From an uncultured Lachnospiraceae bacterium (lineage in GTDB: Bacteria > Bacillota > Clostridia > Lachnospirales > Lachnospiraceae), in NCBI GenBank assembly GCA_946549155.1, contig CAMNQN010000001.1, forward strand, positions 531 through 64,530: a DNA stretch of 64,000 bases, written 5' to 3'. Positions 1,702 through 33,642 of the stretch are shown here, piece after piece. The notes beneath the pieces are model-generated. The model was not told the DNA's origin and ran no database searches. It saw nothing but the letters and a program-made list of their open reading frames with translations. Positions within the stretch are counted from its first letter, which is position 1; every line of letters starts with the position of its first letter. A program made the translations under genes and the position numbers.

Positions 1702-3642
1702 ATGATGGGAAAAAATATCATAGATGTGGATCACGTATCCATCCGGTTTAATCTGGCCAGCCAGAAGGTAAATAACCTGAAGGAGTACGCCATAAAGCTG
1801 GCGAAGCATGAGCTGATGTTTCAGGAATTTCTGGCGCTGAAGGATGTGAACCTGCATGTGAAGCCGGGGGAGGCCTGGGGATTGATCGGAACCAACGGCT
1901 CCGGAAAATCCACTCTTTTAAAGACAATCACCGGTATTCTCAAACCCTACCAGGGAACCGTGAAGGTGAGAGGACAGATCGCGCCCATGATTGAGTTGGG
2001 GGCTGGTTTTGATATGGATCTGACTGCCCGGGAAAATATTTTCCTGAACGGCGCTGTGCTGGGTCATTCCAATGAATTCATGGAGGAGCATTTTGAGGAT
2101 ATCGTAGAATTTGCCGGATTGGGGAAATTCCTGGATTCTCCTATTAAGAACTTTTCTTCCGGTATGAAAGCGCGATTGGGATTTGCTGTGGCTACTATGG
2201 TGGATCCGGAGATTCTGATCTGTGATGAGGTACTCTCCGTAGGAGATTATCAGTTTAAAAAGAAATGCAACGAGCGCATGGAGGAGATGCTGTCAGGTGG
2301 AACCACGCTGCTGTATGTGTCTCACAATATCGACTCTGTAAAAAAACTTTGTACTCATGCGCTGTGGCTGGATCACGGCGAGGTGATTATGTCAGGAGAA
2401 GCGAAAGAGGTTTGCGATGCTTACAGCACCAGGCAGGAGCAGATATTCCGCATTGAACGGAAGGAAAAGGAAGTTAAAAAGGCGCAGAAGCCAGGAAATA
2501 AGTACGATTATCTGGTGGTGGGAGCCGGGCTTTACGGGGCGGTGTTTGCCCATGAAGCCTATAAAGCGGGAAAGCGCTGCCTGGTGATCGATAAGAGGAA
2601 TCATATCGGAGGAAATATCTATACAGAGAATATAAGTAAGATCAATGTGCACAAATATGGCGCGCATATTTTTCACACCAGTAAGAAACCAATCTGGAAC
2701 TACGTAAATGAATTTGCGGGGTTCAACAATTATATCAATGCACCGGTGGCGGTCTACAAGGACGAGCTGTATAATCTTCCCTTTAATATGAATACCTTCA
2801 GCAAGCTCTGGGGTGTGCGGACTCCGGAGGAGGTTAAGAAAAAAATCGCGGAGCAGATTGCAGAACTGAACATTACGGAGCCGAAAAATCTGGAGGAGCA
2901 GGCGCTTTCCCTGGTGGGCAGAGACGTTTACGAGAAGCTGGTGAAGGGCTATACGGAAAAACAGTGGGGAAGAGACTGCAGGGAGCTGCCGGCCTTTATC
3001 ATCAAGCGGCTGCCGCTGCGGTTCACCTATGACAATAACTATTTTAATGACCGTTATCAGGGTATTCCGGAGGGCGGATACACAAAGATTATCAAACAGC
3101 TTCTGGAAGGCATCGATGTGAAGCTGGAAACTGATTATGAAACCTATGTAAAAGAACATCCGGATTCCTTTGAAAAGGTACTATATACCGGACCCATCGA
3201 TGAGTATTTTAAGTATTCCCTGGGCCATCTGGAGTATCGTACGGTTCGCTTCGAGACGGAAGAACTGGAGATGGAGAACTATCAGGGCAATGCGGTGGTG
3301 AATTATACGGACCGGGAGGTGCCCTACACCCGCATTATCGAGCATAAGCATTTCGAGTTTGGAAAGCAGCCCACCACCATTATTTCCAGAGAGTATTCGG
3401 AGGAGTGGAAGCCGGGGATGGAACCCTATTATCCGGTGAATGACGAGAAGAATAATGAACTGTTCGGGAAATACAGAGAACTGGCTGAAAAAGAAGATAA
3501 AGTGATTTTTGGCGGTCGCCTGGGGAATTATAAGTATTATAATATGGATCAGGTGATTGAGGAGGCTCTGCTGATGGCGGAGCGGGAGCTGAAGAGGAAA
3601 ATTTTGGAGAATTACGCGGGAAGTAAGCCGTTGGAGGAATAA
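1702..3642 (+). CDS. Fusion protein: glycopolymer-export ABC ATPase (TagH/Wzt-like) + UDP-galactopyranose mutase (Glf)
   Basis: First ~250 aa carry Walker A GTNGSGKST, signature SSGMKARL and Walker B ILICDE. A Lys/Glu-rich linker (RIERKEKEVKKAQKPGNK) follows. Then come the FAD fold GAGLYG and Glf-type blocks (NVHKYGAHIFHT, YYPVND, GRLGNYKYYNMD). One uninterrupted 646-codon frame; AGGAG lies just upstream of tandem ATG ATG. Confidence 0.85.
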   Translation: MMGKNIIDVDHVSIRFNLASQKVNNLKEYAIKLAKHELMFQEFLALKDVNLHVKPGEAWGLIGTNGSGKSTLLKTITGILKPYQGTVKVRGQIAPMIELGAGFDMDLTARENIFLNGAVLGHSNEFMEEHFEDIVEFAGLGKFLDSPIKNFSSGMKARLGFAVATMVDPEILICDEVLSVGDYQFKKKCNERMEEMLSGGTTLLYVSHNIDSVKKLCTHALWLDHGEVIMSGEAKEVCDAYSTRQEQIFRIERKEKEVKKAQKPGNKYDYLVVGAGLYGAVFAHEAYKAGKRCLVIDKRNHIGGNIYTENISKINVHKYGAHIFHTSKKPIWNYVNEFAGFNNYINAPVAVYKDELYNLPFNMNTFSKLWGVRTPEEVKKKIAEQIAELNITEPKNLEEQALSLVGRDVYEKLVKGYTEKQWGRDCRELPAFIIKRLPLRFTYDNNYFNDRYQGIPEGGYTKIIKQLLEGIDVKLETDYETYVKEHPDSFEKVLYTGPIDEYFKYSLGHLEYRTVRFETEELEMENYQGNAVVNYTDREVPYTRIIEHKHFEFGKQPTTIISREYSEEWKPGMEPYYPVNDEKNNELFGKYRELAEKEDKVIFGGRLGNYKYYNMDQVIEEALLMAERELKRKILENYAGSKPLEE

Positions 3643-7142: not shown

Positions 7143-9026
7143 ATGAGAAAATATAAGAGAATAGTTGCGGCAGTTATTATCATTCTTCTGGTGGTTTTTG
7201 TGGAAGTTGGTTTTAATTATCCTGCCCTTGTGGAAGGATATGAAGAACTGGACTTAAGTCCGTATATTAAGGCAGAGGGTGAAAAAGGGAACCAAAGCTA
7301 TGTGGTGGAGTATCAGGTTCCGCAAGGATTATATGTGAAGCAGCTGGAGATACGGGGAAGGTTTTCAGGGGCGAATTGTATCGTAGAGTGCAGAATACTG
7401 AATGATTTTGGCAAAGAAGAGGAATATACGGTGACAGATTCCGTACATTCATGGTTCACCAGCTTTTATACGAATCTGAATAAGCGGATAACCTCCATAA
7501 AGATTACTCTCCCGAAATACAGTGGTACAGAGCTGTGGTCAGTGTCGCTCTCCAACCGGGCAGAAATAAATAAATACCGGTTATTGTTTGTGGCATTATC
7601 CTTGATGGTATTGTACTGTGTTTTCTTTGAACACATTTTCAGAAAAAGACCGGAATATTTTTTCCTTTTGTTTTCCGCGGCTTATGGTGTGCTCCTGCTA
7701 TTAAGCGGACAGCCTCAGTGCAATGCCTGGGATGAGCAGGCCCATTTTCAAAATGCATACCGTCTTGCCAGCGGCAGAGTTGTGGAATGGAACGAAGCGG
7801 CAGAATTGATGGGAACGGGTAAGACTGTAAAATGCAACACAAAGGCAGAATACGCCCAACTGAGAGAATTTATGGATGAGAAGGGGAAAAATGGTACCGC
7901 AGCGGAGGAACAAGGCAGATGGGGGCTGGGCTATAATTCCTTTGGATATCTTCCCAGTGCTGTATTTTTGAGAATTGGCATGTGGCTGGGGTTGTCCTTT
8001 TCTAATCTGATATTGTTAGGAAGAATGGGAAATCTGTTGGCATATATTTTGGCTATGTTTTGGGCCATTCGTCTTGCGAAGCAAAAGAAATTGTTTTTGC
8101 TGCTTGTTTCTCTGATGCCCACCTCTCTTTTTCTGGCCTGTTCTTATACGTATGATGGGACAATATTTTCCCTTGTAACATTGGGAATTGTATTGTGGGC
8201 CAATGAAATGACTGCTCAGAAAGAGGAGTACCGGATATGGCCTCTTGTGTTGTCTGTTTTCCTGATCGTAATTGGCGGCATGGCAAAAATTATTTATGTG
8301 CCTCTGGCGTTGATTTGGATTTTAGCACCCCAGATAAAGCGGATCAGCAAAAAGAAAAAAGCGCTTCTGCTGTCCGGTGTTGTAGTGTTCTGTGCGGTAT
8401 TGGGAATCTTTGTCGTGGTTCGCTGGCTTATACCTGTGCTGAAGGGCCAGATTCTGTTTGCGGATTTTCGGGGCGGAGAAACCAGTCTGGCTGCCCAGTT
8501 AACATCGATGCTTCGCCATCCCTGGGCAAGTATTAAAATGTTCGTAAGAGATATTCTGAGCCTGGATAATTTCCGGAATTCCGGAATCGCGGAATATAAT
8601 GACTTTTTTGTGGGAAATTTGATGTTTCTGAATTATTATCTTATGGGAGTTATGTCGGATAAATGGTGCATTCTGCTGCTTCCGGTTATGGTGATATTGC
8701 TGCTGTATCCTGGGGAGGAGATTGGTGAACAAAGAGTGCTGCGCAGGGGGCAGCAGTGTTTTATATTGCTCATTGTGACGGGTGTTATTGGGTTGATCTG
8801 GGCATCCATGTATCTGGCATTTACCCCGGTGGGGGATTCCAGAATTGCAGGAGTGCAGGCAAGGTATTACCTTCCGCTGGTTTATCTGGCAGCTCTTGCT
8901 ATACAGGGCAAAACGATAGTTATACAAGCCGGATATAAGGGAATGGTGAAAATGACGATGGTTACCGCACTGGTGCTGGAAACAGTTTCTATGTATGACT
9001 TTATCTTGAGTTCCCGGCTTTTCTAG
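7143..9026 (+). CDS. Polytopic membrane protein, DUF2142-like (putative glycopolymer-modifying/polymerising membrane enzyme)
   Basis: Many hydrophobic segments; a ~140-aa soluble insert follows the first TM. The AWDEQAHFQNAY block resembles the DE..H signature I associate with DUF2142. The track ORF starts at 7062 inside the upstream gene. ATG 7143 (or TTG 7125 just after AGGAGGA) is more plausible. Confidence 0.7.
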   Translation: MRKYKRIVAAVIIILLVVFVEVGFNYPALVEGYEELDLSPYIKAEGEKGNQSYVVEYQVPQGLYVKQLEIRGRFSGANCIVECRILNDFGKEEEYTVTDSVHSWFTSFYTNLNKRITSIKITLPKYSGTELWSVSLSNRAEINKYRLLFVALSLMVLYCVFFEHIFRKRPEYFFLLFSAAYGVLLLLSGQPQCNAWDEQAHFQNAYRLASGRVVEWNEAAELMGTGKTVKCNTKAEYAQLREFMDEKGKNGTAAEEQGRWGLGYNSFGYLPSAVFLRIGMWLGLSFSNLILLGRMGNLLAYILAMFWAIRLAKQKKLFLLLVSLMPTSLFLACSYTYDGTIFSLVTLGIVLWANEMTAQKEEYRIWPLVLSVFLIVIGGMAKIIYVPLALIWILAPQIKRISKKKKALLLSGVVVFCAVLGIFVVVRWLIPVLKGQILFADFRGGETSLAAQLTSMLRHPWASIKMFVRDILSLDNFRNSGIAEYNDFFVGNLMFLNYYLMGVMSDKWCILLLPVMVILLLYPGEEIGEQRVLRRGQQCFILLIVTGVIGLIWASMYLAFTPVGDSRIAGVQARYYLPLVYLAALAIQGKTIVIQAGYKGMVKMTMVTALVLETVSMYDFILSSRLF

Positions 9027-30091: not shown

Positions 30092-31669
30092 ATGACTTTT
30101 TTATCAGGAATATTTTTTGCCTTTTTATTGATTACATTTATAATATACTTTATAGTGCCTCTCAGGCTTCGCTGGATCGTACTTCTGGCGGCCAGTGTGG
30201 TTTTCTATTTGTCCTCCGGCGTACCGCAGATTTTATTTATTCTTCTGTCGTCTCTGCTGGTATACGGTGCGGCCAGATGGATAGATGTTTTATATACCAG
30301 GCAGGACCGCGAATTAAAAGAGGGGGAATTTAGCCGGGAAGAGAAAAAGGCGCGAAAGCTTTCTGACCGGAAAAAATGCAGACGTATCCTGAATGCGGCT
30401 GTACTCCTCTTGTTGCTGGTGCTTACATACTGCAAGATTGGCGGCTGGGTAATCGGAAGCCTGCGGGATGCCCTGGGCGAGGGCACGGTGGACTGGATGC
30501 AGGTGATTGTTCCGCTGGGCGTTTCATATTATACGTTTTCACTGATCTCCTACCTGGCGGATGTATATTGGAGGAAAGAGAAGGCGGAGAAGAATTATTT
30601 TAAGTTTACGCTGTTTGTAATCTATTTCCCGAAAATCTTGCAGGGACCGATTTCCAGACATAAGAATCTGGCGGCGCAGCTGACGGAGGGACATGCTTTC
30701 GAGTATAAGCGGGTCTGTTACGGACTGCAGCTTGCTCTGTGGGGATATTTTAAGAAGCTGGTGATTGCGGATCGGCTGGCTGTTTTTGTTAATCGGGTGT
30801 TTGGCAATTATATGGCATACAGCGGACTGATTTTTGTGGTTGCTACGCTGCTGGCCAGTGTACAGCTTTATGCGGATTTCTCCGGATGTATGGATATCGC
30901 CTCCGGCGTTTCCCAGATTTTCGGAATTGAGCTGGAGAAAAACTTTGACCATCCTTTCTTTGCGCGAAGTGCTGCGGAATTTTGGCGCAGATGGCATATT
31001 ACGCTGGGGACTTGGTTTAAGGACTATGTGTATATGCCGCTGGTGGTTTCCCCCAGAGTGAGCAGGATTGCCCAGAGGGTGAAAAAGATGTTTGGAGCCC
31101 GGACCGGAAAAGCGATGATGACCATCATTCCCACAGGTATTGTCTGGGTACTCACTGGTTTGTGGCATGGTACGGGATATAATTATATTGCCTGGGGACT
31201 GTACTGGGGCGGTATCATTATTTTTTCTACAGTGTTTGCTCCGGAGATTCGAAAACTGACTGCCTTTCTGCGGATTAATACAGAGACCAGCGGATGGAAG
31301 GTGTTTCAGATGGTACGCACTTTTTTGCTTTTCTCCGTTGGGCGGTTGATTACGATCCCAGGGCATTTGAGGACGACGCTGGATGTCCTGGAAAAGATCG
31401 GGGAGCAGTTTGACATCTGGATTCTCTTTGACGGATCTTTGTATAATTATGGACTGAATCAGAAAAACTTTATACTGGTGATGATTACGCTCTTTATTCT
31501 GTGGGCGGTGAGTATGCTGCAGGAGCGGGGCTGTCTGCGGGACAAAATTGCGGGACAGAATATTGTGTTCCGCTGGGCGATTTATTATATTGCTTTTTTC
31601 TCCGTGCTGATTTTTGGAATGTATGGAGCTGGATTCAATAATGCAGTGTTTGCGTATATGCAATATTAG
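30092..31669 (+). CDS. MBOAT-family membrane O-acyltransferase (DltB/AlgI/PatA-like)
   Basis: FWRRWHITLGTWFKDYVYMPL and GLWHG histidine blocks; polytopic. Confidence 0.9.
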   Translation: MTFLSGIFFAFLLITFIIYFIVPLRLRWIVLLAASVVFYLSSGVPQILFILLSSLLVYGAARWIDVLYTRQDRELKEGEFSREEKKARKLSDRKKCRRILNAAVLLLLLVLTYCKIGGWVIGSLRDALGEGTVDWMQVIVPLGVSYYTFSLISYLADVYWRKEKAEKNYFKFTLFVIYFPKILQGPISRHKNLAAQLTEGHAFEYKRVCYGLQLALWGYFKKLVIADRLAVFVNRVFGNYMAYSGLIFVVATLLASVQLYADFSGCMDIASGVSQIFGIELEKNFDHPFFARSAAEFWRRWHITLGTWFKDYVYMPLVVSPRVSRIAQRVKKMFGARTGKAMMTIIPTGIVWVLTGLWHGTGYNYIAWGLYWGGIIIFSTVFAPEIRKLTAFLRINTETSGWKVFQMVRTFLLFSVGRLITIPGHLRTTLDVLEKIGEQFDIWILFDGSLYNYGLNQKNFILVMITLFILWAVSMLQERGCLRDKIAGQNIVFRWAIYYIAFFSVLIFGMYGAGFNNAVFAYMQY

Positions 31670-31677
31670 GATACTAT

Positions 31678-31705
31678 TTCCTAAAAAAGCATTATGTGTT
31701 ATGAT
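31678..31705 (+). promoter_or_regulatory. Candidate sigma-70-type promoter for the three-gene cassette
   Basis: TTCCTA, 16-nt spacer, TGtTATGAT (extended -10), about 30 nt upstream of ATG 31735. Confidence 0.35.
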
Positions 31706-31734
31706 AATAAAATACAAAGGGTGAATATTGGTAT

Positions 31735-32184
31735 ATGCGATTAAATGAAGAATTATGTATGAAGTTCCCGGCAGTTTTGCGAGAAAAATTATTAAAAGGT
31801 GAAATTGAACTTCCGGATACTACAGAATTTGATTATAAGAAGCTGCTGACATACAGGGCCGTAGCGCGAAAAGCGGATGATAATCGAGAAGTTACCTTGG
31901 AAGATTTTAAATCTTATTTTGAGCTGAAAAAAACGCCTAAGAGTCCCAGAGGAATGCTTAAAGTCGATCTCTCGAAGGATCCTCATTATTATGGAGTATC
32001 AAGTTTTTTGAAAAAGGAAATAGTAGAACAGAAGATGAAATTTCCGAATCCCAATAAAAAAATGGCGGTAGGGTACGTATATAAAGAAGGAGGTCCTCAG
32101 GAGACAAAGACAAAAGATCAGCATGTGTGCTGGTGGCTTTATAGTAACGCAGATGTTAGCGGATTTAAGCTATGGGAGGGTTAA
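31735..32184 (+). CDS. Hypothetical protein (149 aa), first gene of low-GC cassette
   Basis: RBS AAGGGTGAATAT. No family recognised. Lys-rich and soluble. Confidence 0.6.
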   Translation: MRLNEELCMKFPAVLREKLLKGEIELPDTTEFDYKKLLTYRAVARKADDNREVTLEDFKSYFELKKTPKSPRGMLKVDLSKDPHYYGVSSFLKKEIVEQKMKFPNPNKKMAVGYVYKEGGPQETKTKDQHVCWWLYSNADVSGFKLWEG

Positions 32185-32187
32185 TGG

Positions 32188-32853
32188 ATGGAAAAAGAAC
32201 AGTGCTTTTGTATTGAAAATAATATTCTTTATTTAGAGCAGGTGTTGGTTGACTATATGGATATTCCAATATTCTTTCTGTGCAAAGATCAAAGCCAATA
32301 TTATGTTGTATTATGTACAGATATTGATGCGCTTAATTATATTATTGTGAAGGTGGCTTTGGGAGAGGTATATGGCTTACTGCATGGAAAAATTCCAATG
32401 AGGAACGTTATTTTGGAACAAAAGGAATATTGGGAAGTTATTTCCGGAGAGGAGATTTCTCTGGATACAGTAATAAGGCACGGGATAGCGTCTCTTGATA
32501 CAGCGGTTTTACCAGAGAAAGAAGCTTGTTTTAAGATATTGACGGATGAAATGAGAATATTTGTTCAGAAATTTGATAATGATTTTTTGGCTTCCGAAAA
32601 TTTTTCCAAAACTCAAAAGATAATACAAGAGGATGACAGGTGGATGATAGATGAAACAATGGAGGAGTTCAGAATTGAGCGATTTATTGTTATGGAAGAT
32701 TATACTTTTAAAATAAAATTGCAGCATGGGCGTGCCTCTACTGTGAACTATGAGGAAAAGTATGGAACGGATAGGAAGAAAGCCACAGTACTGTGTAAAT
32801 TGCAGGCATTAGAAGAATGGGAGAATGAAGATACAAATAATGCTGCTGCATAG
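32188..32853 (+). CDS. Hypothetical protein (221 aa), second gene of low-GC cassette
   Basis: Starts 3 nt after the upstream stop. RBS GAGGGTTAAT. Acidic C-terminal part. No family recognised with confidence. Confidence 0.6.
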   Translation: MEKEQCFCIENNILYLEQVLVDYMDIPIFFLCKDQSQYYVVLCTDIDALNYIIVKVALGEVYGLLHGKIPMRNVILEQKEYWEVISGEEISLDTVIRHGIASLDTAVLPEKEACFKILTDEMRIFVQKFDNDFLASENFSKTQKIIQEDDRWMIDETMEEFRIERFIVMEDYTFKIKLQHGRASTVNYEEKYGTDRKKATVLCKLQALEEWENEDTNNAAA

Positions 32854-32864
32854 AGGGTGAATAT

Positions 32865-33269
32865 ATGGAAAAAGAACAAAACGCACAGAGCGTATTACAT
32901 TTGGATAAAATCGTTTTTGATAAAATTGAGTTTAAAAGACTGGGCATCGCGTCAGATAATGAACTGGAGTTGGAAATAAAATCTAATATTGCGCAAAGAC
33001 AGGATGCGGAAGTGTACAGGGTTACGCTGATATTAATCGGAAATAAGCCAGGGGAATATGTTTTTTAAATTAGTCTTACCGGATTTTTTTCGTTTCAGCA
33101 AAATGCAGAAATTACAGAAGAGCTAAGGCATGCATTGATTACAAAAAATGCGGTTGCTATTTTAATGCCATATTTGAGGAGTGAGGTTTCTCTTTTGACG
33201 GCCCAACCGGGTATGGAATGTGTAGTTTTGCCTGCATTTAATATTAACAGAATACTGGAGAATAATTAG
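32865..33269 (+). pseudogene. SecB-like chaperone gene interrupted by an in-frame TAA (33066-33068)
   Basis: The 67-aa track ORF (LHLDKIVFDKIEFK, EVYRVTLILIG, GEYVF) continues in the SAME frame after the TAA. The continuation reads ISLTGFFSFQQNAEITEELRHALITKNAVAILMPYLRSEVSLLTAQPGMECVVLPAFNINRILENN. This aligns to E. coli SecB blocks (FQIQRIYTKDISFE, DVYEVVLRV, CEVQQAGIFSI, NILFPYARECITSMVSRG..LNLAPVNF). Confidence 0.7.
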
Positions 33270-33325
33270 TTCCTATTCGTTAATAGATAATATTTGGAAT
33301 GATTATTGTAGAGGAGAATAATATA

Positions 33326-33553
33326 ATGGAAGAAAAGGTATTAGCATTATTACAGGGAGAATTTCCTGAAGTGGATTTTTTAGCATCAGAGGAGCTGGTA
33401 GATGACGGGATTTTGGATTCCCTGACGCTGACGGGTATCATCGCGGCGCTGACGATGGAGTTTGATATCACGATTCCCTATGAGGAGATTGTGGAGGAGA
33501 ATTTTAATTCCATCGCGGGAATGGCCGCTATGGTGGAACGGCTGATGGAATAG
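33326..33553 (+). CDS. Acyl/aminoacyl carrier protein (DltC/ACP-like)
   Basis: 75 aa, acidic. ILDSLTLTGIIAAL contains the DSL phosphopantetheine-Ser motif. GAGGAG RBS before ATG 33326 (the track start 33299 is probably too long). Confidence 0.8.
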   Translation: MEEKVLALLQGEFPEVDFLASEELVDDGILDSLTLTGIIAALTMEFDITIPYEEIVEENFNSIAGMAAMVERLME

Positions 33554-33558
33554 CGAAG

Positions 33559-33586
33559 AGCTTGCGCGAAGAGCGCAGGCTTTTTG
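33559..33586 (+). terminator. Intrinsic-terminator-like hairpin between the carrier-protein and ligase genes
   Basis: AGCTTGCGC-gaaga-GCGCAGGCT: 9-bp stem with one G-U pair, followed by TTTTTG. Confidence 0.5.
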
Positions 33587-33642
33587 CAATTCTGGTGGGA
33601 TGTGCCTGACAAGGAAAAAAGCGGAAGAAGGGAAACGCAGAA

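Follow-up and report, generated by a model that had tools for sequence, protein, structure and literature searches.

A probable toxin-antitoxin-chaperone defence cassette on a PD-T4-10-like core, inserted into an acylation operon of a Lachnospiraceae bacterium and broken in its chaperone gene

The stretch of DNA analysed here (64,000 nucleotides [nt] of contig CAMNQN010000001.1 from an uncultured Lachnospiraceae bacterium, referred to below as the window) carries a cassette of three genes, which we call g1, g2, and g3, between an MBOAT gene and a carrier-protein gene. The cassette, which has been inserted between these two neighbors, is probably a toxin-antitoxin-chaperone (TAC) phage-defence module built on a toxin-antitoxin (TA) core similar to that of PD-T4-10. 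The initial annotation had already read the block as a TAC-type module, and this reading gains from the SecB-like nature of g3, the synteny of the trio in other genomes, the tail of g2 with its terminal AA degron, and the existence of tail-less g2 relatives that have no chaperone gene beside them. In this particular genome, the cassette is a decaying, inactivated passenger within a wall-polymer acylation operon to whose pathway it does not belong. Its components are as follows.

31735-32184, + strand: g1, 149 amino acids (aa), intact in the window; candidate toxin and remote homologue of PD-T4-10_A.
32188-32853, + strand: g2, 221 aa; candidate antitoxin.
32188-32592, + strand: N-terminal domain of g2 (residues 1-135), beta-rich, folded, and similar to DUF6575 and PD-T4-10_B; candidate toxin-binding (neutralizing) domain.
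32593-32853, + strand: C-terminal tail of g2 (residues 136-221), disordered, hypervariable, and aromatic-bearing, ending in ...NNAAA; candidate chaperone-addiction region with a ClpXP-type degron.
32865-33269, + strand: g3, a SecB-like (CmdC-type) chaperone gene by prediction, a pseudogene in this genome.
33066-33068, + strand: in-frame TAA at codon 68 of g3, which splits a single frame into 67 + 66 codons.

All three genes are co-oriented and, in agreement with the spacing first described for them, separated by gaps of only 3 nt (g1-g2) and 11 nt (g2-g3). Gene 3 is predicted to encode a SecB-like chaperone of the CmdC type. When read through its internal stop (P0001), it matches the PADLOC model PD-T4-9_C, that is, CmdC (E value of 3.9e-17), and phrog_21664 (4.6e-13), together with weaker hits to the SecB model of Pfam (7.9e-5; 23 bits, under the 26-bit cutoff) and to the NCBIfam secB model (1.1e-4), which bears out the earlier description of the third protein as SecB-like. 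CmdTAC is the PD-T4-9 system of Escherichia coli ECOR22, and its C component is a SecB-like chaperone (PMC9519451, PMC11618068; Mets 2024, 10.1101/2024.02.24.581848). Other cassettes carry intact g3 orthologues of 133 to 136 aa. We took the stop in the window to be real because an independent metagenome contig (L008) has the same TAA. In the near-identical allele L009, this position is a sense codon, for Glu, and the product has 134 aa; Glu also occupies the position of codon 68 in 5 of 5 close homologues. Recoding of the TAA was considered and rejected, as L008 shares the stop, L009 has a sense codon, and there appears to be no sign of an altered genetic code. No other SecB-like gene was found in the genome (G000), which is 92% complete. 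With the TAA at codon 68 of g3, this genome does not hold three intact components of a TAC system.

Gene 2 has the predicted anatomy of a chaperone-addicted antitoxin, because its folded N-terminal domain, its disordered and hypervariable tail, and its conserved AA end match those of TAC antitoxins. An AlphaFold2 model built from 59 sequences gave a beta-rich domain for residues 1 to 135 with a predicted local distance difference test (pLDDT) score of >90, while residues 146 to 212 scored <50. The two parts have also diverged to different degrees, with a mean identity across seven cassettes of 49% for the domain and 18% for the tail. The window protein ends in NNAAA; among full-length relatives, the last two residues are AA in 87 of 97 and AV in another 7, and AA is not found among the commonest C termini of g1 relatives. 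CmdA, like other TAC antitoxins, ends in LAA, a ClpXP recognition sequence, and ClpP degrades it when CmdC is missing or has been titrated by the T4 capsid protein (PMC11618068). Searches of g2 against Pfam, NCBIfam, and PHROGs returned no meaningful match, including no direct match to Pfam DUF6575, and Foldseek against PDB found no credible structural relative.

Tail and chaperone seem to go together. Ten genomic contexts combine a tailed g2 with g3, and in four contexts where the g2 homologue has no tail, g3 and g1 are both absent. These N-domain-only proteins (134 to 160 aa, 59 to 65% identical to g2) have at least three different ends, none of them AA, and are located at 4001-4453 in L049/L050, 4001-4483 in L051/L052, 4001-4444 in L053/L054, and 928-1332 in L055. 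One of them lies in a 166-kb contig next to genes for a DNA polymerase III alpha subunit, an ERCC4 nuclease, and an ExoX-like protein (phrog_5889); the nearest DNA matches of these neighboring genes in the phage collection are Firmicute phages of 130 to 176 kb, and the contig probably belongs to a large phage. Another is found in an integrase/excisionase element that keeps a 33-aa remnant of g1, and the remaining ones lie within arrays of small unknown open reading frames. Judging from their sequences, the tail-less homologues are candidate orphan antitoxins or anti-TAC proteins, and orphan, stabilized antitoxins would be favored by selection for anti-addiction or for phage counter-defence. 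Relatives in viral collections were also sought. A tblastn search with g1 and the N-terminal domain of g2 against 50,697 GenBank phages found no match, and scans of IMG/VR with P0175, the g1 alignment, and the g2 alignment gave no confirmed relative.

Gene 1 is the most conserved member of the trio, with a mean identity of 59% across seven cassettes (62 to 76% when the distant L019 is left out). We recovered 217 homologues at 65 to 94% identity, and the family makes up 178 clusters at 50% identity among 1.84e9 protein representatives, almost all of them of 140 to 155 aa. Only Arg41, Ser89, and His130 are invariant over 74 diverse representatives; in the AlphaFold2 model (pLDDT of 92), Arg41 lies on strand 1, and Ser89 and His130 lie where strands 2 and 5, respectively, begin. 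Neither Pfam, NCBIfam, nor PHROGs gave a meaningful match to g1, Pfam searches over the 74 relatives yielded scattered singletons only, and a PDB sequence-profile search with the family returned nothing. Foldseek searches with the model (PDB and BFVD) produced nothing significant (E values of 0.03 to 5, template modeling [TM] scores of 0.3 to 0.43). The named proteins at the top of both lists are all of the ADP-ribosyltransferase (ART) fold (cholera toxin A1, KptA/Tpt1, ParT, PARP4, and phage ADP-ribosyltransferases). An hhalign comparison of the g1 family with E. coli KptA was negative. Gene 1 may thus be an ART-like enzyme with an R-S-H triad, which we regard as a weak lead drawn from the model and not as a finding. 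Two other proteins (P0336 and P0376, 756 to 769 aa, with nine tandem repeats of ~85 aa) match a short stretch of g1 with E values of 2.5e-11 and 2.9e-7; these matches are probably repeat-amplified chance similarity or translated repetitive DNA.

PD-T4-10, described in E. coli ECOR65, is a validated TA system of no predicted function that provides abortive defence against T-even phages, including T4; its B protein is toxic alone, and A, which neutralizes it, cannot be deleted (PMC9519451). The sequence profiles show g1 and g2 to be remote homologues of A and B. On the PADLOC models (PDLC04023/PDLC04024), PD-T4-10_A (148 positions) is matched colinearly by 7 of the 74 g1 relatives, with a best E value of 6.5e-4, and the N-terminal part of PD-T4-10_B by 30 of the 59 g2 relatives, with a best E value of 1e-5. 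The window g1 itself has no match to PD-T4-10_A, and the window g2 reaches PD-T4-10_B with an E value of 0.0062, residues 25 to 128 falling on positions 27 to 135 of the 353 in the profile.

For hhalign, the references were PD-T4-10-type pairs from two Firmicute genomes and not the E. coli proteins (L014, 676-2308; L015, 1081-2730; A of 133 to 148 aa and B of ~410 aa). On the PD-T4-10_A model, the A proteins of these pairs reach 6e-6 and 8e-8, and they retain the g1 motifs YR, G-x-S-x-[FY], and H-[IV]-x-W-W. The g1 family profile aligned to the L015 A protein with a probability of 96.8% (E value of 2.4e-10), and the g2 family alignment to a single B-type sequence was weak (0.0093). The B proteins of both pairs have an N-terminal Pfam DUF6575 domain (1e-30) and a C-terminal half that is PDC-M63B-like, unlike that of E. 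coli PD-T4-10B. The conserved core of these systems is accordingly the A protein plus a DUF6575-type domain, and, since this domain is fused to differing C-terminal modules, the segment following it is exchangeable. In the window cassette, this segment is the disordered, degron-tipped tail, accompanied by a separate chaperone gene; a full-length B (about 350 to 410 aa) and the two-gene layout are not found, as g2 has 221 aa and a third gene is present. The first two proteins had been presented as members of no recognized family and as novel toxin and antitoxin partners. This holds for Pfam, NCBIfam, and PHROGs and for the window g1, which has no direct match to PD-T4-10_A either, but it has to give way where the remote relatives among PD-T4-10 A and B proteins are concerned.

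What we infer for the toxin identity, the chaperone-degron switch, the phage trigger, and the enzymatic activity of g1 follows characterized systems. By analogy with CmdTAC and HigBAC, g1, a small enzyme-like protein with Arg41, Ser89, and His130, would act as the toxin, and the folded N-terminal domain of g2 would bind and neutralize it. The disordered tail, with the AA degron at its end, would make g2 dependent on g3. During infection, a phage structural protein could titrate g3, leaving g2 to be degraded by ClpXP, so that g1 would be freed and the infection aborted.

The cassette is a self-contained, horizontally mobile unit, as indicated by its rarity (among 400 other genomes sampled in the order, only 3 carry g1), by an empty site, and by an adjacent integrase in two contigs. 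The empty site is found in a related genome (G842), where the operon runs DltD-like gene, MBOAT, carrier protein, and ligase-nitroreductase without the trio, and only 20 bp separate the MBOAT stop from the carrier-protein gene; as the related acylation operon lacks the trio, its presence at the window locus is due to an insertion. The flanking genes in the window, both outside the cassette, are the following.

30092-31669, + strand: MBOAT gene (left flank), a member of the Dlt-like acylation operon.
33326-33553, + strand: carrier-protein gene (right flank), 77% identical to the MBOAT-adjacent carrier protein of G842.

The same three genes in the same order were located in at least 10 different genomic contexts, which chance cannot account for and which answers in the affirmative the question of whether they travel together. 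The trio is placed with a YfhO gene on one side and a glycosyltransferase gene on the other (L001-L004), flanked by two copies of a nitroreductase gene in Gemella morbillorum (L005-L007), adjoining rpsI/rplM (L019), following a tyrosine integrase on the border of variable polysaccharide genes (L036/L037), after psd (L038), after mnmA (L040), upstream of rpmG-secE-nusG (L042), and in two further species genomes (L017 and L018). In the Gemella morbillorum contig L005, the cassette is bracketed by two nitroreductase genes of 252 aa (2280-3038 and 8161-8919), accompanied by an exonuclease gene of the RNase_T type and a fragment of a DUF772 transposase; the arrangement looks like a segmental duplication around an insertion. 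Flanking repeats were considered as transposon ends and rejected, since only short repeats at chance level were found. The GC content is 0.35 to 0.39 over positions 31600 to 33300, compared with 0.46 to 0.50 in the MBOAT gene and 0.50 to 0.54 in the ligase gene, so that the block is indeed more AT-rich than both of its neighbors, as noted earlier by eye. The locus is a mosaic, and because the genes at 26 to 30 kb of the window are as AT-rich as the cassette, low GC alone cannot single it out.

The region upstream of g1 contains the signals that could drive the cassette.

31695-31734, + strand: cassette upstream region, with an extended -10-like TGTTATGATAAT and the ribosome-binding site (RBS) AGGGTGAATAT.

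The RBS repeat AGGGTGAATAT (11 nt) occurs exactly at 31718-31728 and again at 32854-32864, and a related motif, GAGGGTTAAT, is located at 32176. A 26-nt repeat (88% identical) extends over the RBS and the initial codons of g2 and g3, which share the start sequence ATGGAAAAAGAACA; the shared RBS context and the identical starts are thus present in the sequence as first reported. The initial annotation had also given the cassette its own promoter, and this claim stands in part. The extended -10-like TGTTATGATAAT is found at 31697-31708, and a promoter-like motif (AAGAYTTGACTTTT, about 12 nt, ATGTGATA) is conserved 60 to 110 nt upstream of g1 in four cassettes (L001, L017, L018, and L040) from unrelated contexts, i.e., it travels with the cassette. 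However, the consensus promoter scan called no promoter between the MBOAT gene and g1, and the window cassette retains only the -10-like half of the AAGAYTTGACTTTT...ATGTGATA motif. Downstream, the regions inspected were those following g3 (33270-33325) and the carrier-protein gene (33554-33642). Terminator prediction found none after g3 and none before the carrier-protein gene, so transcription of the cassette probably continues through the carrier-protein gene and the ligase gene, and the insertion may affect how the distal half of the acylation operon is expressed.

Natural alleles bear on the identity of the toxin. Seven haplotypes of this locus are available, one from the window and the others from six metagenome contigs that are 98.3 to 99% identical. 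Four of them (L008-L011) have a 1-bp deletion in g1 at codon 11-12, CCC to CC (window positions 31765-31773), and two (L034 and L035) have a different one, A7 to A6, at codon ~108 (32052-32058), which truncates g1 to 111 aa without His130. Two frameshifts of independent origin thus disrupt g1 in 6 of 7 haplotypes of this species, g2 is intact in 7 of 7, the g3 stop is present in 2 of 7 (the window and L008), and no haplotype has all three genes intact. The variants are distributed in a mosaic pattern that suggests recombination and is compatible either with it or with a chimeric consensus of the metagenome-assembled genome (MAG). Because g1 is the most conserved gene, its lesions affect six of the seven haplotypes, and orphan g2 N-terminal domains persist, we favor g1 as the toxin; this assignment is itself somewhat more probable than the opposite one, and only within the TAC reading, which is no more than probable. 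The published polarity of PD-T4-10 would then probably be reversed in the window cassette.

Several observations weigh against a TAC module with g1 as its toxin. The E. coli PD-T4-10 has been reported with the opposite polarity, B being the toxin and A the antitoxin (PMC9519451). In another species, with g1 and g3 intact, g2 is split by a frameshift in a T9 run at the conserved IPIFFLC motif (L042, 7442-8063; L043, 5278-5899); the cause may be a genuine lesion, a tract prone to slippage, or a mistake in the assembly. The window has intact g1 and g2 with a null chaperone and no second SecB-like gene, and with a dead chaperone beside an intact pair, a working TAC system should be lethal in this genome. 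The contradiction could be explained by a sufficiently stable g2, by low expression, or by a MAG consensus that is chimeric between strains. A PDB profile search with eight g3 orthologues matched no solved structure. Finally, the resemblance of g1 to ARTs is weak (Foldseek E values of ≥0.03, no Pfam match, and the negative KptA comparison).

Part of this evidence would fit a cassette in which the polarity of PD-T4-10 had been kept, with g2 as the toxic protein, g1 (possibly enzymatic) as its antitoxin, and the chaperone and degron setting the level of a labile toxin. The shared gene order, in which g1 is homologous to A and g2 to the N-terminal region of B, the toxicity of PD-T4-10B alone and its neutralization by an undeletable A (PMC9519451), and the frameshifted g2 next to an intact g1 in L042/L043 all point this way, and the window haplotype, being null for g3, would be survived more easily if an unchaperoned g2 toxin were simply degraded. 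We nevertheless think this arrangement unlikely. The ~220 residues at the C terminus of PD-T4-10B, possibly the seat of its toxicity, are missing from g2, and the DUF6575 domain of B-type proteins is fused to differing C-terminal modules. In addition, a disordered tail with a ClpXP degron marks the antitoxin in every characterized TAC system, 6 of 7 haplotypes of the species have a null or altered g1 next to an intact g2, orphan g2 N-terminal domains persist alone, and the invariant polar triad lies in g1.

A different kind of explanation dispenses with phages altogether and sees in the trio a selfish addiction or stabilization module, or its dead remnant, acting by postsegregational killing and hitchhiking in recombination-prone surface-polysaccharide loci. 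That the two closest characterized relatives, the system with the CmdC chaperone and PD-T4-10, were both isolated by selection for phage defence (PMC9519451, PMC11618068), and that a g2 homologue without a tail is found in what is probably a large phage, as counter-defence would predict, makes this rather improbable in our view, even if every conspecific haplotype has a lesion, 3 of ~10 contexts, the window among them, are polysaccharide or wall-polymer loci, no defence genes adjoin the trio in the contexts inspected, and neither the GenBank phage collection nor IMG/VR contains a match. We can assign very little probability to the remaining idea, namely, that the three genes are accessories of the acylation operon, for instance, with g3 serving the MBOAT/carrier-protein pathway as a chaperone for export or holding and with g1 and g2 as its cofactors. 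They are co-oriented inside the operon without a predicted terminator before the carrier-protein gene, but the homologous G842 operon does without them, they adjoin ribosomal-protein genes, mnmA, psd, nitroreductase genes, or an integrase elsewhere, their GC content is unlike that of both neighbors, and g3 is broken in the window. The empty site, together with the unrelated contexts, all but refutes a role in acylation.

Returning to the TAC module with a PD-T4-10-like core, its interest lies in the fact that TAC systems are a recently recognized way by which bacteria sense phage structural proteins, and that few toxin families have been tied to them in the literature searched (HigB, MqsR, HicA, and CmdT). 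By joining a TAC control layer to the PD-T4-10 TA core, the cassette provides a second, genetically tractable entry to the mechanism of PD-T4-10. The triad of g1 supplies candidate catalytic residues, the natural null alleles suggest a dispensable partner, and the phage-borne, tail-less neutralizing domains may be natural inhibitors. What is new from this locus is the empty site, the natural null alleles, the co-occurrence of tail and chaperone, the tail-less mobile copies, and the R-S-H triad.

A broader scheme can be proposed, as a speculation that we do not expect to hold in full, for the whole PD-T4-10 superfamily. In it, the small A-type protein would be the conserved effector (an ART-fold-like enzyme not recognized so far, with an Arg-Ser-His triad), DUF6575 the universal inhibitor, and the C-terminal appendage an exchangeable sensor, represented here by a chaperone-addiction (ChAD) tail read by a SecB-like chaperone, while phages and mobile elements of gut Firmicutes would carry the inhibitor in a stabilized, tail-less form as anti-TAC counter-defence. 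If this reading of the A-type protein as effector is true, the toxin/antitoxin assignment in E. coli PD-T4-10 needs reexamination.

Among known systems, CmdTAC resembles the cassette in its three genes ordered toxin, antitoxin, and chaperone, in the homology of g3 to CmdC (3.9e-17 on PD-T4-9_C), in a middle protein with a long unstructured C-terminal region and a ClpXP-type AA end, and presumably in a course that leads from chaperone titration to antitoxin degradation and toxin release. The first two genes differ, since neither g1 nor g2 matches the CmdT and CmdA models (PD-T4-9_A and PD-T4-9_B) with an E value of ≤1. CmdT is an ADP-ribosyltransferase of the H-Y-E (H-Y-[EDQ]) type, whereas the invariant residues of g1 are R, S, and H, and CmdA has two N-terminal helices before its tail, where g2 has a beta-rich domain of 135 aa. 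The host of the window is, moreover, a Gram-positive gut anaerobe in which the chaperone gene is a pseudogene. With respect to the R-S-E (cholera-toxin-like) ARTs and KptA/Tpt1, the model suggests that Arg41, Ser89, and His130 are placed like an R-S-E triad; however, the third residue of g1 is His and not Glu, and the matches are nonsignificant (E values of ≥0.03, TM scores of ≤0.43).

PD-T4-10 shares with the cassette the gene order and tight coupling, the length of the A component (~148 aa), which is colinear with g1 and conserves R, S, and H in the L014 and L015 A proteins, and the N-terminal (DUF6575) part of B, which corresponds to the N-terminal domain of g2. It differs in the C-terminal ~220 residues of B, in place of which g2 has a disordered, degron-tipped tail and the cassette an added chaperone gene, and the similarity between both systems is detectable by profiles only. 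The HigBA1-Rv1957 system of Mycobacterium tuberculosis and the HigBAC and MqsRAC systems of E. coli, all of them classical TAC systems, depart from the cassette in their RNase toxins (HigB and MqsR) and helix-turn-helix antitoxins, domains that Pfam does not find in the window g1 or g2. They have in common with it a SecB-like chaperone gene placed after a TA pair and an antitoxin with a C-terminal chaperone-addiction extension, an arrangement in which the TA "warhead" is exchangeable relative to the chaperone.

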